Source of the DNA: a virus
Taxonomy: Duplodnaviria > Heunggongvirae > Uroviricota > Caudoviricetes
Reading direction: 5' to 3' (one strand)
Length of the DNA stretch: 64,000 nt
Virus record (IMG/VR): IMGVR_UViG_3300029736_000004
Shown here: positions 2,847 to 54,147 of the stretch, piece by piece
Numbering within the stretch: position 1 is the first letter of the stretch
Layout of the letters: each line of letters opens with the position of its first letter
Made by a program: the position numbers and the translations under genes
Notes under the pieces: generated by a model
The model's input: only the letters and a program-made list of their open reading frames with translations
The model's database searches: none
What the model was told of the DNA's origin: nothing

Positions 2847-3893
2847 TTAGCCACGGTTAACTCCTTGCTGTGTGGCGTCGAGTAATAAATCCCACAACCG
2901 CTGAGAGCAATTTCCGCATGTACAGCGTTGACCCACAACGTTTATCGCGTTGCTGATTTCCGGCGTTACCTGTTTAGGAACCATAACCCAACCATCCGGA
3001 GTTACCGGAAGCGAGAACGGCAGCACATCTCTGTGAACAAGTTTTTGCTGTGACAGGTTATCCAGAACTTTCTGTACTGCTGCATCACCGAATACACCAA
3101 GCGCATCTGCCATAACTCCTACAACCTGATAAGCCTCAGCGCATACCGTGGATAAACCATCCGGAATTACCGGAGAGTTGCCTGCCAGTCTACGCAAAAC
3201 AGTCTTAACCGCCTCAATACGGTCATCATCGCAACTTTCCAGCGTATCTATGCGATCGAGCATGATGATGGCGTTATCAATATCAGGATTGCCGGTCCAC
3301 TCATTACCGCGATTGGATTCGGCAGCCTGGTTGCCGCGTACTGGTTGATTCTCGGCTTTACCCTGTCTGTCGTCGCTGCATGAATGCCCTTCCAGCCAGA
3401 CCAGTGCTTGTCGCATGAAATACGCAATATGCTTGCCGTGGTAATCGTCTTCATCGATGTGAAAAGCGATACTGCGGATATATTCAATTGCGTTTTCAAT
3501 GGCCTCCGGCGTTATCGGTGCTGACATATTTTTATTTTGGAGTGCCAAGACGCGGCTGGCATCCTCTACGCCTTTAACTGCATCTGCGCAGTAGTTATAG
3601 CGATTGCATTCCACTAACTTCTGCTTGAGATTTTCAATTGCTTGTGCGACATCAGCCTGCAATTCCGGAACTGGCGGAGTGGCATATAACGGCACCCACT
3701 TTGGTGCTTTATCCCCGACCGAACGCTGATACCAGTCACCCGGTTTGTATTCATAAAAATCACCAACTGGCTCTGCTTCCAGAGATGCCAGCGCAATTTC
3801 ATAAGCACGGCGCTCAATATTGTCTCGCACGTCCAGACTGCCTATGCGCTCTTTGATTTCTTTAATCAGTTCTTTGTCGGTTAAAGTGGTCAT
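2847..3893 (-). CDS. hypothetical phage protein (348 aa)
   Basis: Long ORF, C-terminal CTCGNC motif; no confident family assignment. Confidence 0.5.
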   Translation of the reverse strand: MTTLTDKELIKEIKERIGSLDVRDNIERRAYEIALASLEAEPVGDFYEYKPGDWYQRSVGDKAPKWVPLYATPPVPELQADVAQAIENLKQKLVECNRYNYCADAVKGVEDASRVLALQNKNMSAPITPEAIENAIEYIRSIAFHIDEDDYHGKHIAYFMRQALVWLEGHSCSDDRQGKAENQPVRGNQAAESNRGNEWTGNPDIDNAIIMLDRIDTLESCDDDRIEAVKTVLRRLAGNSPVIPDGLSTVCAEAYQVVGVMADALGVFGDAAVQKVLDNLSQQKLVHRDVLPFSLPVTPDGWVMVPKQVTPEISNAINVVGQRCTCGNCSQRLWDLLLDATQQGVNRG

Positions 3894-3903
3894 AAATTAT
3901 GCC

Positions 3904-4437
3904 TCAGTTGTATCCGATTGGATTAACCGCAACAATAACGCCATCCGCGAACAAATCTTTAATGAGGTGTTCGCTCGGCTCGCCTTTTTCGTACTCTTCA
4001 ATAAGGTAAGTGTCTCCATCCTCATTGATATAAACTGGAAGAATGGAACCGTTGATGAAGTAGGTTCCGTTGTTATCGAGGATTTTTGCCTCGGCGATTT
4101 GTTTTTTGGTAAAACGATCTTCTTTTTTCAAAGTTGCCATATCTGTTTCCTTATGTGGGTTAATTTTATTGTGTAGCTTCCTGAATGGGGTCCACACTAT
4201 ATCGATATACAGTTCAACTAACGGTTCAAATACTTTCCCCATTAGAACAGTCACTAATATTGAGGCTATTGGTATCAGCAACACGAAAAACAGAATGATA
4301 AACAGCAATTCTAGTGCTCTACTCTTTCGCGGATATTCTTTTCTGAATAAAGTGGGCATTTCCTCCCCATTAAATGCCTCAATGATTTCTCCAGTGTTTT
4401 GCGCTGCACCTGAATTATCTTTAAATCCTTCTTTCAT
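3904..4437 (-). CDS. membrane protein (177 aa), AT-rich gene
   Basis: Central transmembrane segment LELLFIILFFVLLIPIASILVTVL; locally low GC. Confidence 0.5.
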   Translation of the reverse strand: MKEGFKDNSGAAQNTGEIIEAFNGEEMPTLFRKEYPRKSRALELLFIILFFVLLIPIASILVTVLMGKVFEPLVELYIDIVWTPFRKLHNKINPHKETDMATLKKEDRFTKKQIAEAKILDNNGTYFINGSILPVYINEDGDTYLIEEYEKGEPSEHLIKDLFADGVIVAVNPIGYN

Positions 4438-5132
4438 CGTTTGCTATCTTCCTCACACCCAAGATATGAAAGAGATGTAATTGCTTTTGCACGGAAACCA
4501 CCAACCTTGCTAAGTGCGCTTTTAAGTGCGTCAAGGTCAGATTGTGATTTGATCATGAAAGTTAACCGCGCAATTCCAGACATAGAGTCAGAACCATTCA
4601 CTGCGTTGTAGTGATATATGTATCGGGTGACTGATTGAGTCACGCCCTCCTGCTGGTGGTTTATATTGGCGTCCTGTCTTGTGTTGGCCTGCTCCAACTC
4701 TTCGATACGTTCAGCCATCGCAGCACACTCTTCAAAGTTGCTTAATGCTTTTCGCTCCGATTCAGCGCATTGTTTTTCCAGTTCTGCTATGCGCTTACCT
4801 CCATCCGCGATTACTCCCTCGTAATGCTCGCGCTGCTCGTTGAGTTTTGATTTTGCCGACTCCAGTTGTTTTGTTAGTTCCACAATACGGCAAACATCGT
4901 TGATACGCGTTTCCTCTAATGCGTTGATCTCATCCAGTAGTGCCAAAGCAACCTTGGGATTAAAGGCAGCAATAAATTCAGCGTTGTTTTTCAGAACGTG
5001 TTGCGCAATGGCCTGACTACTTAGTCGGACCTCATAACCACGTGCGCCACGGTGTGGTTTATATGAGTCCCAGTCTCCCCACGTTGCTTTCACTGCCGCC
5101 TCACGCAGTGCCTGGTAATTAATTTCGCTCAC
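4434..5132 (-). CDS. Ead/Ea22-like family protein
   Basis: N-terminus [13 protein letters not shown] typical of lambdoid Ead/Ea22-like proteins; coiled-coil middle; start overlaps upstream stop. Confidence 0.6.
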   Translation of the reverse strand: MSEINYQALREAAVKATWGDWDSYKPHRGARGYEVRLSSQAIAQHVLKNNAEFIAAFNPKVALALLDEINALEETRINDVCRIVELTKQLESAKSKLNEQREHYEGVIADGGKRIAELEKQCAESERKALSNFEECAAMAERIEELEQANTRQDANINHQQEGVTQSVTRYIYHYNAVNGSDSMSGIARLTFMIKSQSDLDALKSALSKVGGFRAKAITSLSYLGCEEDSKR

Positions 5133-22880: not shown

Positions 22881-23861
22881 ATGTCCCAGGAGCTACAGCA
22901 ATACTTTCTACAGTCCGTTACCATCAACGGAAACAAAGTACCCAGGGAGTGGATATTCACTGCCGTATATGTGGAAAAGGCAAACCTGCGTGCACCATTG
23001 CTGAAACTGGAAATTCACGACATTACCGGCACCATAATTGATGACTGGAAAACAAAATACGGCGCAGCACTGGTTGCAGAGATGGGAGATCCACAAGGCA
23101 ATTCAGGCACGTTTAAAACAACTTTTTTCGTAACATCTGCGGTGCTGGCTGGTGATGTCATCACGGTCATTGCAGTCAGTGAAGACGTTCGGATATTTAA
23201 GATCCCCGCTATACGGGCTAACCTGCATACAAATAAAACGCCTGATACCATTTTCAAGACGTATACCGGTACACTGAAAATCGCCTCCAGCGCATTGAAA
23301 CGAAGCTGTACGTACCATCTTTCCGCCGGGGAAAAACCCTCCAAAATGCTATCTGAAATGGCCCGCGACAAAGGCGCTTTATGCTGGGCCTGCCGTGGTC
23401 AGTTTAACTTTTATACATTAGCTGACCTTATGAAAGCCAAACCATCATTCACCTATGAAGGGAACAACCCCAGGGCGGAATACACGATTTCAAAAATGAG
23501 GCTTATACAGCAAGAGTATGCCGTTACGGCAAATACTCAGTATCGATTTACCGGCTATTCAATGACTGAAGGCTATGTCGAATATGGCGATAGCTCACTT
23601 CCAATACGCTATATATCCGATCCGGATATGGAAACTCTGCGCAATATGCAATTGTCGCTCGTACCCAAAATGGATATTGAGGTCGCGGGTAATCCCGACA
23701 TCACGCCGGGAATGGTTATTGAGATCCTCGTGTATCGTTACGACCAGGAAAATAAGCTGGACGAATCGTTGCCTCGTAAGCTGTTGGTGAAAAACGTAGC
23801 CCATTTTGAGGACCGGATCGGATATACAACACGAATGATATTAGGAGTACCCAACCAGTGA
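22881..23861 (+). CDS. hypothetical protein (baseplate-associated by context)
   Basis: Coupled ORF upstream of the spike gene. Confidence 0.4.
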   Translation: MSQELQQYFLQSVTINGNKVPREWIFTAVYVEKANLRAPLLKLEIHDITGTIIDDWKTKYGAALVAEMGDPQGNSGTFKTTFFVTSAVLAGDVITVIAVSEDVRIFKIPAIRANLHTNKTPDTIFKTYTGTLKIASSALKRSCTYHLSAGEKPSKMLSEMARDKGALCWACRGQFNFYTLADLMKAKPSFTYEGNNPRAEYTISKMRLIQQEYAVTANTQYRFTGYSMTEGYVEYGDSSLPIRYISDPDMETLRNMQLSLVPKMDIEVAGNPDITPGMVIEILVYRYDQENKLDESLPRKLLVKNVAHFEDRIGYTTRMILGVPNQ

Positions 23862-24535
23862 AACGCAGAGCGCAAATCGTAGGGACCAAACACCCTGCCG
23901 GACTTATGCGAGCGCAGGTCCGCATACTGCCTGACTGGAACGGTGTACCGGATGAAGACCTCCCATGGGCAGAGTATCAAATGCCTATCGGTAACGCCTT
24001 TACACCTACAGTCAGCGGCGATTTAGTCTGGGTAGAATTTCCTTATCTGGATGCTAAAGGCAGGATAGACACGCGCCGACCTTTAATCGTTGGTGCGGCG
24101 CAGGATGCCCCAGGAGGCGTACCAAATGTGCCTCCGGAAGCCTCCGGACAAGGAAGTGGATGGTCGCCAGAAGAAGTTGATGGTGCTCCTGCCCGCCCCC
24201 AGTTTTCGGCGACTGAAGATTTTGTTATTCACCGAAACAATATCCTTGAGGTCAGAACGGCTGGCGGTGGCTATGAAATAGCAAACACCGCCGCAGGATC
24301 AAGGATAGGGATGAACGAATCCGGCCAGATTTACATAATCGGCCCGGCGAATATAGTGCTTAATGCTGGAGGTGAGGTTAACGTCAAATCAAGCAGCAAA
24401 ACCAATGTATCCTCTGATGGAGACGTTAATGTAAAAGGCAGCAATGTAACCGTCGCCGCTGATGGTGATATAGCCCTGAAAGCTGGTGGCGCGCTAAAAG
24501 CAACAGCGAGCAATTTCTCCTTTGTGAAGGGATAG
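23858..24535 (+). CDS. baseplate central spike protein (gpV-like)
   Basis: N-terminal OB-fold-like region (GDLVWVEFPYLD) and C-terminal beta-helix repeats (VNVKSS..DGDVNVKGSNVTVAADGDIALKAGG). Confidence 0.5.
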   Translation: MKRRAQIVGTKHPAGLMRAQVRILPDWNGVPDEDLPWAEYQMPIGNAFTPTVSGDLVWVEFPYLDAKGRIDTRRPLIVGAAQDAPGGVPNVPPEASGQGSGWSPEEVDGAPARPQFSATEDFVIHRNNILEVRTAGGGYEIANTAAGSRIGMNESGQIYIIGPANIVLNAGGEVNVKSSSKTNVSSDGDVNVKGSNVTVAADGDIALKAGGALKATASNFSFVKG

Positions 24536-27074: not shown

Positions 27075-27077
27075 GAA

Positions 27078-27098
27078 AAGCCCCATATGGGGCTTTTA
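27078..27098 (+). terminator. intrinsic terminator after the methyltransferase operon
   Basis: AGCCCCA-TA-TGGGGCT followed by TTTTAT. Confidence 0.5.
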
Positions 27099-27099
27099 T

Positions 27100-27205
27100 A
27101 ACATCAAACAAGCACCGTTACGGTACACTAATAACACCATTCTGGTACTAAAAAGGAACCAAAGCAGCCTCAAAATAACACATGGAACCAAAACGGTGTT
27201 ATTCC
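27100..27205. repeat. repeat cluster flanking the ParA/ParG operon (downstream side)
   Basis: AACACCATTCTGGTACTAAAAAGGAACCAAA and AGCCTCAAA..TGGAACCAAAACGGTGTT units shared with 28140-28375. Confidence 0.45.
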
Positions 27206-27209
27206 GGCG

Positions 27210-27497
27210 TCATTTTGTATCCTCAGACTCTGCAAGCATGAGGATAGCATGGCGGATCATATTCAATTTGCTGCGATTATGCTTTTTGCTTAACGCATCA
27301 AGTACCTGGTACTCGTATTCATTGAAGCCAACACGAATGGATTTAAAATCACGTGGGGCGTCCTTATCGAGCACTTTGTTGTCTTCTGGTTGCTCACCCG
27401 GCACCAAATCAGCTTTGCTGGCAAAAGCCTCAATTCGGCGTTCAAGATCGAGGTCTTTTACTTCGGGGGCTTTTACCGATTTACGAGGCTTAATCAC
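27210..27497 (-). CDS. ParG-like ribbon-helix-helix partition protein
   Basis: Small protein directly downstream of the ParA gene; C-terminal beta-strand/helix pattern IRVGFNEYEYQVLDALSKKHNRSKLNMIRHAIL. Confidence 0.5.
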   Translation of the reverse strand: MIKPRKSVKAPEVKDLDLERRIEAFASKADLVPGEQPEDNKVLDKDAPRDFKSIRVGFNEYEYQVLDALSKKHNRSKLNMIRHAILMLAESEDTK

Positions 27498-28131
27498 TTA
27501 ATAACTCCTTAACCAACATCTGGATTTCACCTTTAGCTTTCCCGTTGTCCATCTCAACAACGCCCTTCCCTTCAGCCATACAATCGCGGTAAACCTTGCG
27601 ATCGCGAATGATGGTTTTCAGCAACTTCAGTTGCGGATATTCAGCAAGGTACTCTTTGGCCTCATTGGCTTCATTCACAACCGGATTGGATGGGGCCATT
27701 GTTAAGACTGCGCACGCCTTAATGCTAGGATTAGGCATCAGATCCAAAGCCTCTTCAAAGACTTCAACAAAATGCGCCAGCGTGTCTAAATCTGGCTGAG
27801 ATGGCCTGAATGGAACAAGCAAAACATCCGCCGCAGTAATACCGGTGCGCATCTCTTTGCTATCACGACCAGCGGTATCAACAACCACAAATTCATAACG
27901 CTTGTCCAGATCAAGAAGTGTTTCACGAATATTCCCAAACTTCTGGACGCAATGAATTACTGGAGAAACCTCTGCCGCATTACGGTCCGATGCCCAACGG
28001 GCAGATGTTCCTTGCTTATCTGCATCAAGTAGAACTACGTCCTTATTTGCGCGGGCAAGCTCCGCACAAATGTTTACGCTGGTGGTTGATTTGCCACAGC
28101 CACCTTTTTGGCTGGCTACCAATATAATCAT
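27490..28131 (-). CDS. parA: ParA-family partition ATPase (small type Ib, ParF-like)
   Basis: Deviant Walker A KGGCGKST near N-terminus; 213 aa. Confidence 0.85.
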   Translation of the reverse strand: MIILVASQKGGCGKSTTSVNICAELARANKDVVLLDADKQGTSARWASDRNAAEVSPVIHCVQKFGNIRETLLDLDKRYEFVVVDTAGRDSKEMRTGITAADVLLVPFRPSQPDLDTLAHFVEVFEEALDLMPNPSIKACAVLTMAPSNPVVNEANEAKEYLAEYPQLKLLKTIIRDRKVYRDCMAEGKGVVEMDNGKAKGEIQMLVKELLSD

Positions 28132-28139
28132 ATCCGTTC

Positions 28140-28375
28140 CTCGGTGTTATTTTGGTATCAAAATGGTTCCAAACAGAAGCCTTATTGATGCGGTTTTGGC
28201 TCTATAGTGGAGTCACTATGCTTTGCAAAAGTATAACACTAAACACTCTAAATTTGCCCTCTGTTGCATCCTGTTTAACACGAAATCAGCCTCAAAGTGG
28301 AACCAGACACAAAACAGCACCATAACAACACCGTTTTGGTACTAAAAGAACACCAAATTAGAACCATAACAGTAT
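28140..28375. repeat. repeat cluster upstream of the ParA gene (candidate centromere/operator)
   Basis: GGTGTTATTTTGGTATCAAAATGGTTCCAAA and CACCGTTTTGGTACTAAAAGAACACCAAA related units. Confidence 0.45.
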
Positions 28376-28400
28376 AAAAAAGGCTGCAAATTGCAGCCTT
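28375..28400 (-). terminator. intrinsic terminator after parR (minus strand)
   Basis: Perfect palindrome AGGCTGCAA-A-TTGCAGCCT followed on the minus strand by TTTTTAT. Confidence 0.5.
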
Positions 28401-28416
28401 TGAAGATGTAGATTTG

Positions 28417-28782
28417 TTAATCAGGGAGTGAGTTTGCCAAATTCTGTGCAGAGCGGCTTTTCGAAACGCCAGGTTTTTTAACATCCGCTGAGGCAGAGGG
28501 GTTTCCTTCAGGGTTTTCCCGAACTTCAGGCGAAATTTCAAGAAATGAAACCAGCATTTTTCTGATCACTTCAGGGCTATTATCACCGGATAAAAGCGAT
28601 GCCAACATGGGAGGTAATCTGCTATCAACCTCGCCAAGAGCGATACCTGCAAGCATCGCTGTGCGCGCCATATCATTGCGATCTCTTAATGGATGGCCCT
28701 CAAGTTTTGCATCAGCATATTGCTCACTGGCGTTAAGACCAGGACGAAGATAAAACAATACTTTTCGACGTTCCTGAGACAT
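28417..28782 (-). CDS. parR: ParR (StbB-like) centromere-binding protein
   Basis: Resembles R1 ParR (RKVLFYLRPGLNASEQYADAKL...RTAMLAGIAL); directly downstream of parM. Confidence 0.7.
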   Translation of the reverse strand: MSQERRKVLFYLRPGLNASEQYADAKLEGHPLRDRNDMARTAMLAGIALGEVDSRLPPMLASLLSGDNSPEVIRKMLVSFLEISPEVRENPEGNPSASADVKKPGVSKSRSAQNLANSLPD

Positions 28783-28792
28783 GGCAACCTCA

Positions 28793-29752
28793 TCAACCGA
28801 TAGATTTTAGACCATAGACAAGAGCAAGTTGTGGATCATCAGCAACGAAAAACCTATCGTCACGAATGTTTACCTGCTCACGGATAGCATCAGCAACAAG
28901 CGGCGCGCCGCCACCAATGACCATAACATGCGTGTATCCTTTGAAATCACTGATCACATCCAGTACGCGTGTACGGAGTCGTTCTATGCTTGACGAAATG
29001 GCTTTCTTAACATCATCAATAGCAGACGGATCGTTAATATTGTCGGTCAAATAATCCTCATCATCACGATTAATGATTAATTGATCGACATTATAATTAG
29101 AGGTTTCGGTATTCGCTTTTGCAAGTGCCTGTCTGACCTCTTTAGTTACCAGCGAAACGCCGAGATTAGAATCGCCAAATACGCGAGAAACGGCGGTCAT
29201 TTGCCCGGCGACCATCGACACATCCAGAGTAGTCCCACCAAGATCAACAATAAGCACAGAATGCGCTGGCACAAGGCTGTCGCACAGACCGATCCCTGCG
29301 GGTATTGACTCCGGGCGCACAGTCACTTTTTTGATAGTAAAAACCTGACCTTTGTTAAGGGTGACTGGTCGCATCAGGCTGGCCTTTTTCCGCTCAATAT
29401 TTTTCATGTTGTATTGTGCGTCGTCGTCATAAAACTCTGCCAGTGGCAACGTGACAACTATTTCCACTTCTTGAGGCTCAATGCCACTTGTAAGCAGGGC
29501 ATGATGAACAGCAAGCACATTAAGCGGGCTGTATTGCCATTCAACGTTATTCGTCGGCAGCACATCCGGCGAGATCAAGTCATATGAATATTTTTCGTCA
29601 TCAATGATGTAGTTAAACGGCTTTCCTGCGCCAAATGTGGCGGACCATCCACGTTTAAAACTGTTCGGACAGATATGGGTTCGAGTTTCCCCGTCTTGTT
29701 CCCACAGCATTTTGATATTGGTAGAACCATCGTCGATAAAAATGCGCATCAT
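28793..29752 (-). CDS. parM: ParM (StbA) actin-like segregation ATPase
   Basis: MMRIFIDDGSTNIK...NSFKRGW...AVHHALLTSG matches R1 ParM; start at ATG with GGAG RBS. Confidence 0.85.
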   Translation of the reverse strand: MMRIFIDDGSTNIKMLWEQDGETRTHICPNSFKRGWSATFGAGKPFNYIIDDEKYSYDLISPDVLPTNNVEWQYSPLNVLAVHHALLTSGIEPQEVEIVVTLPLAEFYDDDAQYNMKNIERKKASLMRPVTLNKGQVFTIKKVTVRPESIPAGIGLCDSLVPAHSVLIVDLGGTTLDVSMVAGQMTAVSRVFGDSNLGVSLVTKEVRQALAKANTETSNYNVDQLIINRDDEDYLTDNINDPSAIDDVKKAISSSIERLRTRVLDVISDFKGYTHVMVIGGGAPLVADAIREQVNIRDDRFFVADDPQLALVYGLKSIG

Positions 29753-29766
29753 ATTGCTCCACTTCT

Positions 29767-29940
29767 GAGACACATTTGAGAAAGAATTGAATTTTATATG
29801 AGAAAACAAAATAAGACCAGAAGTTAGATAGCGTAAAAAGCATCAAACTAGAGACGTAAAAGAGACACAAAAGAGACTTAGATGATACATGATGTACCCA
29901 CGATACCCATTTGAGACAAATCAGAGACAAATATGAGAAG
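29767..29940. repeat. parC-like centromere: clusters of 11-bp-phased (A/T)GAGA(C/A) repeats
   Basis: AGAGAC at 29851, 29862, 29873 and TGAGAC/AGAGAC/TGAGAA at 29913, 29924, 29935; more copies at 29767-29805. Confidence 0.6.
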
Positions 29941-30001
29941 TAAGAAATCTGAAGAGTGAAAATCACAAAGTGGAGAAGATTTAAGAAAAAGGAGGTGTTA
30001 G

Positions 30002-30286
30002 ATGAGTGCAATAGCGACCAGTGACACAGTTTGTTCTGGTCATGGAGGATTCCCTCCGCGACCTGTAGCAGAAACAGTTTCCTGGTTTACCGTAAATGGA
30101 AAGCCAGTGGTTGTAGATGGGGGAGCGTTCCCCAGCCATACAGACGGAAATAGCGCGCACCCCGGATCAGCCGTATCGACGCGCTCATGGTTTGCAATAG
30201 GCGGAAAAGGAGTTGTTTGTGTGGGAGATCCCCTTTCTTGTGGCTCAGTCATCGCCAATGGTGAGGCAATTTTTCAGGTGTCATAA
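30002..30286 (+). CDS. PAAR-motif spike-tip protein
   Basis: NGKPVVVDGG and IGGKGVVCVGDPLSCGSVIANG PAAR-like repeats; AGGAGG RBS. Confidence 0.55.
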   Translation: MSAIATSDTVCSGHGGFPPRPVAETVSWFTVNGKPVVVDGGAFPSHTDGNSAHPGSAVSTRSWFAIGGKGVVCVGDPLSCGSVIANGEAIFQVS

Positions 30287-31080
30287 TGCTTGATTCAATC
30301 GCTGAAGTTAATGCATTCAAAATTCTAAATGCATCAGGCACAACTACGCCTGCATCTATCACGCTAAGTAAAACAGCGTCATCCAATGCCAGTTCTCTGG
30401 AAGAGAATATCCAGGCTCTTATCCTGAAGGATAAAGCATACCCGGCGTCGGTGGTTTCATGGGTCAATCAGCTTTCTGTCTTTTCAGAACAACTGAAAAC
30501 TGTCAGTGCAGAAGCAACCAATTTAGCCGACTCGCTGTCTCCGTATACTTCGCCAACTGAATTACTTCAGATGAAAATTGGCTGGGAATGTTACGTCAAA
30601 GGTAATGAGTTATCTCCTGCGCCAGAATTTGCTCTCGTAACAGTTATGGGAGATACCCTGCATCCGCAATCGCTTATTGACGCGTTGGCTGCATTTGAAC
30701 TGGTGCCAATCACTTCAGCCATGGCCGCTATAAATGCAAAAGTTCAGGCGTCAAGCGGGGAGGCTTCAGGCAACGGAAGTTCCACCGGAACAACACAGCA
30801 ACCAGCACTAACAGAAGAAGAGATCAAAGCACTAAAAGACGCTGTGGAAGCAGCAACAGAACAAATAAATGCAATAAACAACACGAGCAGTAGTCTCTCA
30901 ACACTTGCACAGCAAGTTAAGGACTCTACCGGAAAAGCCAAACAGGGACTGGAAAATGCTGTAGCTATTACGTTAACCGGTTCTCTACTGGGCGATGAAG
31001 TAATGAGTCCGGCAATCAGTTTGATCATGCCACAAGGTGTAATCGATGCGCTCCAAAGCAACACTAAAAAGGAATCATAA
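30286..31080 (+). CDS. hypothetical protein (264 aa), coupled to the PAAR gene
   Basis: Start overlaps the PAAR stop; Ser/Thr/Ala-rich. Confidence 0.45.
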   Translation: MLDSIAEVNAFKILNASGTTTPASITLSKTASSNASSLEENIQALILKDKAYPASVVSWVNQLSVFSEQLKTVSAEATNLADSLSPYTSPTELLQMKIGWECYVKGNELSPAPEFALVTVMGDTLHPQSLIDALAAFELVPITSAMAAINAKVQASSGEASGNGSSTGTTQQPALTEEEIKALKDAVEAATEQINAINNTSSSLSTLAQQVKDSTGKAKQGLENAVAITLTGSLLGDEVMSPAISLIMPQGVIDALQSNTKKES

Positions 31081-31150
31081 CCACACCATTTAAGCCCATA
31101 AATGGTTACAAATTGGTACACATATCACACCAACAAAAAATCTGAAGAGG

Positions 31151-31609
31151 ATGGTTTTGAAAAAGATAATTTTGATAGTAGTTGCGCTTTTAGCCATTTA
31201 TGGAATTTACCGTACTACGGCGGCAGTTATCGATCACATCAGGTATATCCGTTCCCTGGAAGACTCAAAATCACAACTTGAAAGCGAGAACAACACGCTT
31301 TCTACCGCATTGCAGTTAAGTGAAAAATCGCGATCTGCCATGATGGCTGAAAACGAAAGAATTAAAACACTGGAGAAGGAGTACCAGCGCAAAACAGCAG
31401 AACTGAATACCAGCCTGATCAAACAACGGGAGGAAAGCCAGAATGAAATCAATCGTCTTGAAACTGCGTTACGTAATGCCGGGGTTAATGATGTGCGTGT
31501 GCCTGATGACGTTATCAGGATGCAGCGGGAACGGGCAAAAGAAATCAATCAGCGTGCCAATGCAAATTACCGTAGAAGCCACCAGCAAACCGCAGGGAAA
31601 TCTGATTGA
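31151..31609 (+). CDS. Rz-like i-spanin
   Basis: N-terminal transmembrane helix then coiled-coil; contains the overlapping Rz1-like ORF. Confidence 0.55.
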   Translation: MVLKKIILIVVALLAIYGIYRTTAAVIDHIRYIRSLEDSKSQLESENNTLSTALQLSEKSRSAMMAENERIKTLEKEYQRKTAELNTSLIKQREESQNEINRLETALRNAGVNDVRVPDDVIRMQRERAKEINQRANANYRRSHQQTAGKSD

Positions 31610-31775
31610 TTATACCCCTTGCATAGTGCCAGAGGACACACCTGTGCTGTTAAACAAGTATCCGGCATACACTGAACAGTTATTCAGCACTATCGATGAA
31701 TGCAACCAACGAAATGCACTGAATAACCAAAGGAACAGGGAAATTTGGGAAGGGAAGGGGGATCACGGCTCCTGA
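31476..31775 (+). CDS. Rz1-like o-spanin lipoprotein (overlapping Rz in +1 frame)
   Basis: LSGC lipobox after a short signal peptide; Pro-rich mature part; start uncertain (31443 or 31476). Confidence 0.45.
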   Translation: MPGLMMCVCLMTLSGCSGNGQKKSISVPMQITVEATSKPQGNLIDYTPCIVPEDTPVLLNKYPAYTEQLFSTIDECNQRNALNNQRNREIWEGKGDHGS

Positions 31776-32245
31776 AGCCAGATATCCTGGCTGTCAGCTT
31801 CTTCAAAACCGTGACAGACGTTAAAGTCACTCAAGCGATACTGGCGCTGACGGCCTCTATTTCGCTCATGCCAATGCATATATCCACCGGCAAATGCCAG
31901 CGGACAATCGCTATAGTCGATGTAGCCAATACCATTACCCAAACGCGCTTCGCGCGCCCCGGCTTTCCAGGACAGTAGAAAAGAGTCACGATCTGCCAGC
32001 ATGACTACAAAATCATCTGGATCGCCTATGCAGTGAAGAATGCCTGCCTTGCATAACTGTTTGAGTGCCTTAGACTGGCTCAGGATGTCTTCACCGTAAT
32101 ACTGAAAACAATCATCAACAATAGCGGGATAGCCAGCGGGTGGATTCAGGCTGGTTGGTATAGCTGACGCGATAGCCAGCATTAAACGATATTGTGTTTT
32201 CGATGGGTTCGCGTGACTCATGTTTCCTCTACTCACTGTCTCCAT
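31763..32245 (-). CDS. hypothetical protein (160 aa)
   Basis: Coupled downstream of the RHH-like gene. Confidence 0.4.
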   Translation of the reverse strand: METVSRGNMSHANPSKTQYRLMLAIASAIPTSLNPPAGYPAIVDDCFQYYGEDILSQSKALKQLCKAGILHCIGDPDDFVVMLADRDSFLLSWKAGAREARLGNGIGYIDYSDCPLAFAGGYMHWHERNRGRQRQYRLSDFNVCHGFEEADSQDIWLQEP

Positions 32246-32625
32246 GCATTTTTCAGCTCCGGAATATCAGCCATTTCCACTAACTTCCGAAGCCCCGCGC
32301 TGACCTTCCCATTACCAACCGCAGCAAGCCAATCCCTTACTGACTTCGGCATATAAAGAGTGGTCGTTACAGGATCTTCCACTCTTACAGGCGTGCCAAT
32401 TTGAGGCCACTTAACAGATGCCAAAACGTCAGAAGGCGGGGTAAGCGCGGGAACATTAAGAATAGCCTTTCCTGAATGGAGAATCACGATTCGTTCAGCC
32501 AGGGAAAGAATGTCTCTTTCAGTAAGGATTGATGACAGTTGAGCTTCTACAAGGCATCTGCTGCTTGTATTCAGAGAATGGCTTTTAGCACCATTTTTGT
32601 ATGAAACGAAGATCTTGTACGCCAT
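32233..32625 (-). CDS. protein with C-terminal ribbon-helix-helix-like segment (candidate regulator)
   Basis: C-terminal TTLYMPKSVRDWLAAVGNGKVSAGLRKLVE resembles Arc/CopG RHH; adjacent to operator site E. Confidence 0.35.
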   Translation of the reverse strand: MAYKIFVSYKNGAKSHSLNTSSRCLVEAQLSSILTERDILSLAERIVILHSGKAILNVPALTPPSDVLASVKWPQIGTPVRVEDPVTTTLYMPKSVRDWLAAVGNGKVSAGLRKLVEMADIPELKNAWRQ

Positions 32626-32642
32626 TTGTTCTAATGTTTTAT

Positions 32643-32704
32643 GTTAGAAAATTAAGATTAAAACATACTAACACAAGATTGTTAACGAAAATTATTTTTC
32701 TAAT
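32643..32704. promoter_or_regulatory. operator-like motifs (site E) in a divergent promoter region
   Basis: TGTTAGAAAATT-11 bp-ATACTAACAC plus TTTTCTAATG at 32695. Confidence 0.5.
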
Positions 32705-32784
32705 GCTATTGACTAAATAACAAAGTGAGTATTGTCACCTCGTCAAAAGAATCTTCACGCCGCGCCCGAATTTAGGGTTTAACC

Positions 32785-34482
32785 GTGAACAAGAACATTG
32801 AGCCAGCTCGTAAGCGCGAGCGCGAGATTATGAATCGGGCGGCAAGCGTCATGGCTATGACCGTCGATCCAACCACTGATGCTGCCGGTAACATGATTGC
32901 CGACAACGAAGTGATGATGGCTAACCTGGAAAAAGCTATCCAGAAAGAGCCTATGTTTGAAGGCGTTGAACCAGAAGCAGCTCGCCAGATCATTGGTAGC
33001 TGGGCCATGTCTATTCATGAATACAAACGCCAGTATGGGCATTATCCGGCAAGCGATGTATTAGCCAACGCCCATGTAGCACTTGAGCGCCTGATGATGG
33101 AGTCCGCTAAAGAGACTCATGAAGGCGCTGGCAAAGCCATGTTTGAATCAGTAGCCAAGGACATGCGCACCTCCGATGGTGTAATGAAGGTTGCACAATA
33201 TGCCGCACTGATCCTGCCTGCTTCTCTCGGCGCAGCCACCAGCGACGCATGTACGTTTATCCCTTGTGATCGTGATGAAACCAATATTTACGAGCTGACC
33301 AACGTTGCTGGTACAAAATTCGGTACATTCGAGCAGGGCGATGAACTGAACATGCAGTCTGCTGGAGTGTATTCGCAGATGAAACGCCTGTACATCCTGA
33401 CCGAAAAAGGAGATGGCAGCAAAACCACCTTCCAGTTTGATATCCAGAACTTCGAAGGCCAGGCCTGCCCACTGCGCCAGGGCTACAACAAACTGCTGAT
33501 TAACCGCAAACCGTCCAAAGTAGATGATGGTGACGGCAACCTGTATTTCAACGACAAAGACGTCAACGGCAACTCTTTCTCTGTGACGGCAAAGGTTCGA
33601 TACGATACCGGCGTTATCGATATCACCTTTAATGAAGCACCAGCAGAAGGCACAGAAATCGCTGTTCAGGTTGAAATCAACATTGAACGCAATCCGAACC
33701 TGATACCTGTCATTAACCAGTCCATGCGCAATTACGCCCTGCGCCCGTCGGAGTACGTGATCGCATCCGAACATACGGTTATGGCTGCATCTGACCTGAG
33801 CCGTGAACACGGACTCGAACTGGCAGCATTGCAATTCTCTGCAATGCGCAACTGGATTTCCCACGAAATCGATATGATGCGCCTGCGCACTCTGGTATTC
33901 CACACCGTTTACGGTCGTGAATTTGATGTGGCACTGCCAGAAGCGCAGAACTACGAGTCGTGGGTTGGTTTAATTCGCCATGTTGTGAACGCGCTGTCAC
34001 AGGAGATGGCTGACCGCACCCTGACTACCGGTATCCGTGGTGGCTTTGCTGGTGGCGATGCTGCTAACTTCCTGCGTTCCTTACCGCCGCAGCACTTCCA
34101 GTTGGCACCGGGCTATGTACAGTCGCCGTACATTCAATACATCGGCACCCTGTTTGGTTCCATTCGTATCTACGAAGTGCCGAAGCCTATCTGCAAACAA
34201 TTCCAGAAATATGGCTACGACTTCGGCCTGGACGACATCTATTTCTATGGTCGTGGCGAAGGCATTGGTAAAGCAGGCCTGGTCGCAGGTGATGCTGTGC
34301 CTGCTATTCCGTATGTCCACGAAACAAATCCAGCCCTGGTGAACCGCACCACTTTCTGGGGCAAAGCAATCAACGATGTGCATCCGCGCAACGGTGAGAA
34401 CTATTTCACTCGCCTTCGCCTGACACGTTCGAAAGAAGGTGCGATTGACATGTTGAGCGGGCAAATCAACGAAAAAAAGTAG
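32785..34482 (+). CDS. putative major head protein (by position upstream of the sheath)
   Basis: 565-aa ORF, GTG start; heads a block followed by Ig-like, sheath and tube genes; assignment positional only. Confidence 0.35.
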   Translation: MNKNIEPARKREREIMNRAASVMAMTVDPTTDAAGNMIADNEVMMANLEKAIQKEPMFEGVEPEAARQIIGSWAMSIHEYKRQYGHYPASDVLANAHVALERLMMESAKETHEGAGKAMFESVAKDMRTSDGVMKVAQYAALILPASLGAATSDACTFIPCDRDETNIYELTNVAGTKFGTFEQGDELNMQSAGVYSQMKRLYILTEKGDGSKTTFQFDIQNFEGQACPLRQGYNKLLINRKPSKVDDGDGNLYFNDKDVNGNSFSVTAKVRYDTGVIDITFNEAPAEGTEIAVQVEINIERNPNLIPVINQSMRNYALRPSEYVIASEHTVMAASDLSREHGLELAALQFSAMRNWISHEIDMMRLRTLVFHTVYGREFDVALPEAQNYESWVGLIRHVVNALSQEMADRTLTTGIRGGFAGGDAANFLRSLPPQHFQLAPGYVQSPYIQYIGTLFGSIRIYEVPKPICKQFQKYGYDFGLDDIYFYGRGEGIGKAGLVAGDAVPAIPYVHETNPALVNRTTFWGKAINDVHPRNGENYFTRLRLTRSKEGAIDMLSGQINEKK

Positions 34483-34611
34483 CAGTGGCGAACGTGTCAG
34501 TTTCACCAACGGCAATTGAAGTAAACGAAGGTGAAACTATCGCCGCGAGCACTTCAAAGACACGAAAAACACCCAAAAAGAAGTAAAACCAGCCCCTGAA
34601 TAGGGGGCTAT

Positions 34612-53374: not shown

Positions 53375-53701
53375 ATGTTTGCAGATTATGAAAATCTGGC
53401 TGTAGCAGTCATAACATCCCTGCTGAGTGGAACCGGCGTATTCCTTCTCGGAGTTAGAGACGGGCGCATTTCTGCGTCACTGCTCAACCTCGCGAGTGAA
53501 TTGTTTACTGCGGTAACTGCCGGGCTTGCGGGGTTTTGGGTGGCTGATAGCTATGAATGGCCGGAAGGCATCATTTACTGCGTTGTTCTGATTGCCAGTA
53601 ACAACGGAAGTGAAATTTTACAGGGCTTGAAGTCCAGAGCTAGTAACGTCTTGAATCTCTTAAGCGTAATAGCGAGTGGGGGAAAAGGTGGAGAGAAGTA
53701 A
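53375..53701 (+). CDS. holin-like membrane protein (LydA-like by size and position)
   Basis: 108 aa with 2-3 hydrophobic segments and charged C-terminus. Confidence 0.4.
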   Translation: MFADYENLAVAVITSLLSGTGVFLLGVRDGRISASLLNLASELFTAVTAGLAGFWVADSYEWPEGIIYCVVLIASNNGSEILQGLKSRASNVLNLLSVIASGGKGGEK

Positions 53702-54147
53702 TGGGTGACTTTGGAAATTATTTCATTTTTATCATGGCATTTGTTGCCGTTATTGACCGTTTCTTATTTCGTCGCAAGAGTGTTGATATTTTGAGCATTG
53801 GCGAAGCTGTAGTGAAAGAGTCTGCTATAGCGTTTCCTGTGTCGCTTCGCGTTAAACGAAGCTGGGTAAGCAATGCACAAATCGAATATTGGTTGCAGGA
53901 CTTGAAAAATCCATCTGTGGTTATTTCGGGGAAAACCAGACCAGTTGACGCGTCAAAACGCGGTGAGAGAGAAGAATATTTGCTCATCGACACGAAATAT
54001 CTTGAGCCAGCGAAGTGGGATCTAAAGGTCACATTGACTAACGGTAATTGCCGCCTGAATCCGCTTTATCGCATTTTCCCTATCAATGACTGCATAGAAC
54101 GTCAGTTTATGATTGAAAAGTGTGAAGGAGACTGGAATGTCAAATAA
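53701..54147 (+). CDS. membrane protein (antiholin LydB-like by size and position)
   Basis: 148 aa with N-terminal transmembrane helix; coupled to preceding gene. Confidence 0.35.
   Translation: MGDFGNYFIFIMAFVAVIDRFLFRRKSVDILSIGEAVVKESAIAFPVSLRVKRSWVSNAQIEYWLQDLKNPSVVISGKTRPVDASKRGEREEYLLIDTKYLEPAKWDLKVTLTNGNCRLNPLYRIFPINDCIERQFMIEKCEGDWNVK

Follow-up and report, generated by a model that had tools for sequence, protein, structure and literature searches.

The PAAR–UpfB-Like Gene Pair

The 64,000-nt stretch of caudoviral DNA considered here (IMG/VR record IMGVR_UViG_3300029736_000004), referred to below as the window, carries two adjacent plus-strand genes, each with an ATG start. The first (30002..30286) encodes a 94-amino-acid (aa) PAAR spike-tip protein, the orthologue of P1 UpfC and T4 gp5.4, and the second (30286..31080) encodes a 264-aa UpfB-like, all-α protein, the likely subunit of a spike-tip "tripod." DNA of Escherichia phage D6 is 84% identical to this region, and plasmids of ~90 kb from Escherichia coli and E. 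marmotae (e.g., NZ_AP027414) are 97–98.5% identical to it; because of these identities, the window is assigned to a D6-like phage-plasmid, a relative of P1.

The two genes meet in the sequence …TCA TAATG CTT…, in which the final A of the TAA stop codon is the first base of the ATG start codon. This 1-nt overlap bears out the stop/start overlap reported in a preliminary description of the same DNA. A strong Shine–Dalgarno sequence (AAGGAGGT, 29989..29996, plus strand), read directly from the DNA, precedes the PAAR gene; that of the 264-aa gene is weak, which fits translational coupling to the PAAR gene. The 264-aa protein had also been described as rich in Ser and Thr, and this is modestly true (21.6%, compared with 14.5% in nine large open reading frames [ORFs] of the window). 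It contains no Arg, has a net charge of −13, and shows no convincing transmembrane segment.

The PAAR Protein and the Tail Spike

The 94-aa protein was correctly recognized as a PAAR protein in the preliminary description. It passes the Pfam PF05488 threshold (30.0 bits; cut-off 27) and matches phrog_281 (E = 2e-28), and in a sequence search of the PDB its residues 1–94 align with the solved structure of P1 UpfC (9vyi_A; E = 6e-36). Further matches are to T4 gp5.4 chains (5iv5_ZA, E = 7e-7; 5iv5_ZA and 4ku0_D, E about 1e-6) and to 4jiv_D (E = 2e-4). Sequence identity is 88% to D6 orf57 and 57% to UpfC of the P1 family. The protein is exactly 94 aa long in 17 of 17 lineages, is a minimal form without an extension domain, and has four residues (H14, H46, H53, and C80) that are invariant in the 15 lineages aligned. 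In published PAAR structures, a conserved His/Cys set of this kind binds metal near the apex of the cone. By homology, the protein is thus identified as a PAAR spike tip.

The gene at 23858..24535 (plus strand) encodes a spike protein of the P1 gp5/T4 gp5 type that is without the lysozyme domain (phrog_430, E = 8e-43); its counterpart in D6, orf66, is annotated as "similar to P1 gene 5." By analogy with P1, this protein is the probable docking partner of the PAAR cap, and its gene lies 5.5 kb upstream. The PAAR gene therefore stands apart from the spike gene, and likewise from the baseplate and fibre genes at 46.1–52.5 kb of the window, as had been described.

The UpfB Family

The family phrog_1559 ("unknown function") matches the 264-aa protein over its full length (residues 1–261 of 263; E = 7e-101). 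P1 UpfB (E = 1e-134) and two deep-branching homologues match the same family. In tblastn searches, the protein is 58% identical to D6 orf56 and ~31% identical, over 97% of its length, to UpfB of P1, P7, SJ46, RCS47, and other relatives (E about 1e-20), and the D6 record already labels orf57 as "similar to P1 gene upfC" and orf56 as "upfB." Sequence searches of Pfam, NCBIfam, and PDB returned nothing above noise, and no enzyme or toxin domain was detected with Pfam, NCBIfam, or PHROGs. The protein is accordingly classed, on sequence similarity, as the orthologue of P1 UpfB.

A profile search of 1.84 billion representative proteins recovered only 71 clusters (at 50% identity) of the UpfB family, in which full-length members are 240–265 aa long. 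No fusion to a larger protein was detected; the sole larger match is a repetitive 3281-aa protein at chance level (E = 3e-5). A scan of genome contigs gave one match, in Citrobacter sp. NCU1. As judged by these searches, the family is small and confined to P1-type myoviruses.

An ML(D/E/N) start is kept in all 49 aligned members of the family. The annotated start of P1 upfB (AF234172, 3444–4289) lies 19 codons upstream of this conserved start, from which P1 upfB would begin 8 nt past the upfC stop codon, instead of overlapping upfC by 49 nt.

The AlphaFold2 model of the 264-aa protein (predicted local distance difference test score [pLDDT], 88.2; predicted template modeling score, 0.79) has ten helices and zero strands. 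An N-terminal bundle of helices (residues 5–156) is joined by a disordered, Gly/Ser/Pro-rich linker (residues 158–170; pLDDT below 50) to a 58-residue helix (residues 177–234), which is followed by two short C-terminal helices. P1 UpfB has also been described as alpha-helical (PMC13611949). A Foldseek search of the model against PDB gave nothing below an E value of 0.04, with only generic helical bundles and no specific structural relative among the hits. The best neighbours in BFVD come from large myoviruses (Pectobacterium phage Wc4, Serratia phage 3M, and Escherichia phage FEC14); these DUF7217 proteins share 11–12% identity with the protein at a template modeling score of about 0.5, which is too weak for homology and is taken as resemblance only. 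Homology to VirB5 and VirB6 was also rejected, as identity is 8–10% and designed helical bundles score equally.

Linkage of the Two Genes in Related Phages

Gene order was compared at 40 loci, comprising 33 viral contigs, D6, P1, and five deep-branching loci (L038–L042) that represent four distant clades and were found by exact-protein look-ups. At every one of the 40, the UpfB-like gene is preceded by a PAAR gene on its own strand, with identities as low as about 20% for UpfB and 43% for PAAR. In the viral contigs, D6, and P1, a module of PAAR, UpfB, inner-membrane spanin (i-spanin), and outer-membrane spanin (o-spanin) genes is intact, and the PAAR gene ends at the start of the UpfB gene. 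Of 17 lineages, 13 have a 1-nt overlap between the two genes. The spacing is more variable in the deep-branching loci: the genes overlap by 1 nt in L040 and are 15 nt apart in L041 and L042 (where the PAAR gene is uncalled in the source annotation), while L039 has a gap of 210 nt, and L038 one of 1.5 kb. The pairing of the two genes is more than chance.

Divergence of the UpfB Body

The second gene of the pair differs strongly from its D6 counterpart. Relative to D6, UpfB has a rate of nonsynonymous substitution (dN) of 0.335; the values for other proteins are 0.062 (PAAR), 0.076 (capsid protein), 0.038 (ParM), and 0.071 (i-spanin). DNA identity to D6 falls to 49–61% within the UpfB body (30340–30927), against a background of 78–95%. 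The conserved parts of UpfB are the N-terminal ML(D/E/N), a central LLQMKIGWEC…KGN motif, and the C-terminal 40 residues (pN 0.04). Most genes are saturated for synonymous divergence (dS) in this comparison with D6, so that the UpfB divergence may reflect positive selection, a relaxation of constraint, or the replacement of an allele, which are inseparable here.

Synonymous divergence from D6 is itself a mosaic over 27400–34600. Values are 0.37 for ParA, 0.26 for the i-spanin, and 0.48 for orf53, and range from 1.2 to saturated for ParM, PAAR, capsid, and sheath genes. Such a pattern indicates putative patches of recent recombination between D6-like plasmids.

The Spanin Genes and a Late-Promoter-Like Motif

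Downstream of the UpfB-like gene, an Rz-like i-spanin gene (31151..31609, plus strand; phrog_214, phrog_89, and phrog_2466) encodes a protein with the N-terminal hydrophobic segment MVLKKIILIVVALLAIYGIY. An o-spanin gene (31443..31775, plus strand; phrog_456) overlaps it in another frame, and encodes an Rz1-like lipoprotein with the lipobox LSGC in MKSIVLKLRYVMPGLMMCVCLMTLSGC. These genes are the positional equivalents of P1 ppfA and mlp, whose products also match Rz-like spanin PHROGs. The spanin pair is far from the holin and LydB-like genes (53375–54147). Between the spanin and capsid genes are two conserved minus-strand ORFs of unknown function (31763–32245, phrog_8101; 32233–32625, phrog_7830), which converge on the putative late operon; the former overlaps the o-spanin stop codon by 13 nt.

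A sigma-70 promoter scan of 29700–32800 found zero sites. The P1 late-promoter consensus (AAGTTACTT-N4-TAnnAT), derived from the annotated LPdar, LPs, and LPsit promoters, has 5 matches in the window, compared with 10.8 in shuffled sequences, and none of them precedes the PAAR gene. Since this consensus is not enriched, a lineage-specific box was sought. Alignment of the upstream regions of diverse relatives exposed the box AAATCACAAA and, after a further 5 nt, a −10-like hexamer. The resulting late-promoter-like element, AAATCACAAA-GTGGA-GAAGAT (29960..29980, plus strand), lies 42 nt upstream of the PAAR start codon, and the box is kept upstream of the PAAR gene in relatives that have no ParM neighbour.

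The generalized pattern AAAT(C/A)ACA(A/C)(A/T)-N5-NAN3T occurs at nine sites in the window, all on the plus strand (17065, 21257, 29960, 32715, 41289, 48802, 53322, 57112, and 59482), whereas 0.115 sites are expected (maximum of 2 in 200 Markov shuffles). This statistic is generous, as the pattern was defined after the sites had been seen, but the bias in strand and position is still striking. Eight of the nine sites lie 40–70 nt before plus-strand late operons (tail/baseplate, PAAR, capsid, pmgB–sit, R–S fibre, holin, darB-like, and portal), and an ORF of unknown function follows the ninth (17065) at a distance of about 155 nt. The pattern is therefore proposed as a candidate late-promoter family, its promoter function being a prediction, and the PAAR–UpfB operon is probably transcribed late, together with the virion genes. 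Late transcription fits a structural role for the pair and the presence of spanin genes in the operon.

A Probable Role at the Spike Tip and Its Alternatives

In P1, cryo-electron microscopy has revealed a tail spike that consists of a gp5 trimer with one UpfC monomer as its cap (PLoS Pathog, 2026; PMC12810830). At the spike tip, UpfB is placed as a helical tripod that has its anchorage on the PAAR protein UpfC, an assignment made by fitting an AlphaFold3 model of UpfB to extra tip density at medium resolution, and a membrane-piercing role has been speculated for it (PMC12810830). A later, independent AlphaFold3 model places three copies of UpfB on UpfC (PMC13611949). In T4, the PAAR protein gp5.4 is dispensable for assembly and is needed for DNA delivery into deep-rough lipopolysaccharide (LPS) mutants (PMC12407873).

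The favoured explanation, to which a probability of about 75% is given, is that the PAAR, UpfB-like, i-spanin, and o-spanin genes form a single late operon of a D6-like phage-plasmid, in which the PAAR protein caps a gp5-type spike and a tripod of the UpfB orthologue aids envelope penetration or DNA delivery. The 94-aa protein would cap the blunt end of the trimeric spike with one copy per virion. The acidic, all-helical 264-aa protein, whose synthesis would be translationally coupled to that of the PAAR protein, would be located in the virion in contact with the cap, as the comparison with P1 suggests, and so would be the part of the virion that reaches the outer membrane first upon sheath contraction. 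Rather than being an enzyme or a toxin, it would most likely be a conditionally useful aid to envelope penetration or DNA delivery. In the course of lineage evolution, rdgC, two methylase genes, the genes for ParA and a small partner, and ParMR would have been inserted between the spike and PAAR genes (see below).

Several points weigh against this explanation. The P1 tripod was not traced de novo, being an AlphaFold3 fit in a medium-resolution map (PMC12810830), and PDB holds no UpfB chain. Reported copy numbers of UpfB conflict, with three trimers in one study (PMC12810830) and three copies in the other (PMC13611949). The main text and Table 1 of an LC-MS/MS analysis of P1 virions do not name UpfB, and gp5, UpfC, gp26, and PmgA were likewise missed in that analysis (PMC9024508). 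Both upfB and upfC of P1 are non-essential for plaque formation, as deletion of upfC and CRISPR interference with upfB or upfC cause no plating defect. In addition, the window protein and P1 UpfB are only about 31% identical.

As one alternative, the 264-aa protein might be a non-virion assembly factor or chaperone that assists PAAR folding or docking and is then released, which would agree with the tight translational coupling of the genes, with the acidic and helical character that the protein has in common with many chaperones, with the absence of UpfB from the main text and Table 1 of the P1 virion proteome (PMC9024508), and with the dependence of the tripod assignment on a fitted AlphaFold3 model (PMC12810830). 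However, the spike tip of P1 particles does show additional density into which the UpfB model fits (PMC12810830), 264 aa is large for the chaperone of a 94-aa protein, and conservation would be expected in a chaperone whose client is 88% conserved, whereas no other segment of the region diverges as fast as the UpfB body; a chaperone is considered improbable. In another alternative, the 264-aa protein would be a determinant of host-envelope specificity at the spike tip, acting in secondary receptor binding or envelope matching, with a body tuned to types of outer membrane or LPS. The drop in DNA identity between flanks and body, the excess of UpfB dN over that of PAAR and the capsid protein, the conservation of both ends of the protein (the N-terminus and the C-terminal 40 residues) and of the central IGWEC motif, and the importance of T4 gp5.4 on deep-rough LPS hosts only (PMC12407873) are all in line with this idea. 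Yet domain searches gave no match to an adhesin, a lectin, or an Ig-like domain, it is the S tail fibre with which P1-type phages make their primary recognition of the host (PMC9024508), knock-down of P1 upfB causes no plating defect on K-12, and with saturated dS, positive selection is not separable from relaxed constraint or allele replacement, so that such a determinant is also held to be unlikely. In a speculative elaboration, to which little credence is given, the tripod would be a modular, fast-evolving host-envelope specificity module on an invariant PAAR cap, and a second determinant of host range at the puncturing tip; its conserved termini would anchor it to PAAR, and its exchangeable body would match different outer-membrane or LPS chemistries. 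If true, this would account for a UpfB body whose divergence among D6-like plasmids matches that of the adjoining ParR/parC incompatibility determinants.

In type VI secretion systems (T6SS), PAAR–effector pairs are made up of a PAAR gene and, after it, a partner gene to which it is coupled. The arrangement in the window resembles these pairs, and the annotations "toxin" and "phospholipase" occur on some of the genes next to T4-like 5.4 genes, which might suggest that the 264-aa protein is an effector or toxin delivered by PAAR into the host. The preliminary description had left the choice between a spike-associated effector and a receptor-binding accessory. Homology to UpfB and the P1 tripod support a spike-tip accessory (PMC12810830, PMC13611949), for whose possible receptor binding the one hint is the unusually fast divergence of the UpfB body, but the effector half of that proposal is not supported. 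Neither toxin, enzyme, nor immunity-like families were found with Pfam, NCBIfam, or PHROGs, the predicted fold is a plain helical bundle of generic type, and the bare PAAR protein keeps its exact length in all 17 lineages and has no extension domain. Comparison with T6SS-type pairs, as had been proposed, reveals no toxin domain, and the next genes are spanins, with no immunity gene; an effector is considered highly improbable. The presence of the spanin pair directly after the UpfB-like gene in D6-like, P1-like, and most related loci would also be compatible with membership of the 264-aa protein in a lysis cassette, for example, as a spanin regulator, the link to PAAR then being merely a matter of operon organization. 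This is scarcely credible, as in L039, L041, and L042 the capsid gene directly follows the UpfB-like gene, with no spanin match, and PAAR is still upstream; furthermore, the holin and LydB-like genes are elsewhere in the window (53375–54147).

The Partition Neighbourhood

As noted in the preliminary description, partition loci adjoin the pair: two are present immediately upstream, on the opposite strand. One encodes a 213-aa ParA-type ATPase (27490..28131, minus strand) and is overlapped by a 95-aa ORF (27210–27497, minus strand) that has no Pfam or NCBIfam match and may encode a small centromere-binding partner. The other is a ParM/StbB system (28417..29809, minus strand). Clusters of (T/A)GAGAC iterons with 11-bp spacing are located between parM and the PAAR gene (29755–29790, 29851–29887, and 29901–29947) and look like the parC-type centromere of the ParM/StbB system. 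The StbB/ParR and iteron region forms a second trough of DNA identity to D6 (39–56%; 28445–28744 and 29791–29913), whereas ParM (75–87%) and ParA (87–97%) are more similar. This is the pattern expected if the putative determinants of partition specificity (incompatibility) have diverged. A glutaminyl-tRNA synthetase gene lies between dam and the ParA module in D6 (3281–4942) and in plasmids of ~80% identity, and is absent at the corresponding position (27075–27209) in the window and in its 98%-identical plasmids.

The 5.5 kb between the spike and PAAR genes of the window thus hold rdgC, two methylase genes, the genes for ParA and its small 95-aa partner, and ParM/StbB. L038 and L039 carry their genes in the order hub, spike, PAAR, UpfB, capsid, and sheath, and plasmid genes are absent; the run from hub to UpfB directly before the capsid and sheath genes occupies 1200–5765 of L038 and 2612–6729 of L039. 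This order is probably ancestral. In L040, rdgC and dmt are located between the spike and PAAR genes. In P1, the rep/par module is downstream of the operon and is non-homologous to the partition genes of the window. Because deep-branching relatives keep the hub, spike, and PAAR genes contiguous and without partition genes, the separation of PAAR from the spike gene and its proximity to the partition genes appear best explained by cargo insertion at the operon boundary. Comparative synteny led to the rejection of any functional tie of the operon to the partition loci, and a functional meaning of the placement that the preliminary description had highlighted is not supported: deep-branching relatives have no partition genes, and P1 has a different module on the other side. 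The odd place of the pair beside plasmid partition genes would accordingly reflect the insertion of cargo and not functional coupling.

Comparison With Known Systems

The spike-tip tripod is a very recently recognized feature of P1-type phages. The pair has already been described in P1, and the window is a further case, in the D6 lineage. What is new here is the linkage to PAAR in 40 of 40 loci, the cargo-insertion account of the gap, the spanin-bearing operon with its late-promoter-like motif, and the fast divergence of the UpfB body. These results add the picture of a small, P1-type-only family that is tied to a PAAR gene, has conserved ends and a hypervariable body, and is probably expressed from a late-type promoter. 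For annotation, entries of the UpfB family that are named "hypothetical protein" in D6-like and P1-like plasmids can be renamed putative spike-tip tripod proteins.

Among other machines, VirB5/TraC and VirB6/TrwI, of the type IV secretion stalk, have a structural resemblance to the 264-aa protein only, homology being unsupported. The likeness to the T6SS is in the PAAR cone, which sharpens a trimeric β-helical spike and serves as an attachment point for another protein. The 94-aa protein scores 39 bits with the NCBIfam model T6SS_PAAR_dom, far under the cut-off of 124, and unlike T6SS pairs, the window pair is without an extension domain, a toxin domain, an adaptor, or an immunity gene; the partner is predicted to be a structural helical bundle, and the phage machine delivers DNA, not effectors.

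T4 gp5.4 is closer, being a homologous (E = 7e-7) PAAR cap that comprises a single domain of about 95 aa, sits on a gp5-type spike, and is needed neither for assembly nor for plaque formation on standard hosts. The differences are that T4 is without a UpfB homologue and that T4 gp5 has a lysozyme domain, which P1-type gp5 is without; for T4 gp5.1, binding to a PAAR face is no more than a proposal, based on an AlphaFold3 model (PMC13611949).

The closest system is UpfC–UpfB of P1, in which several differences are nevertheless evident. UpfB identity is only about 31%; upfC and upfB are separated by an 8-nt gap when the family-conserved start is used, compared with the 1-nt overlap in the window; oriR–repA–parAB is downstream in P1, whereas ParMR and the ParA system are upstream and on the other strand in the window; and the P1 late-promoter consensus is absent at the window operon, where a different box is present. 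The pair is known in the D6 lineage from its genes alone, and the structure and proteomics are those of P1. The two pairs are nevertheless orthologous, with PAAR proteins that are 57% identical and both 94 aa long and with UpfB proteins that both match phrog_1559 over their full length, and the order of the genes, PAAR, UpfB, i-spanin, and o-spanin, is the same in both.

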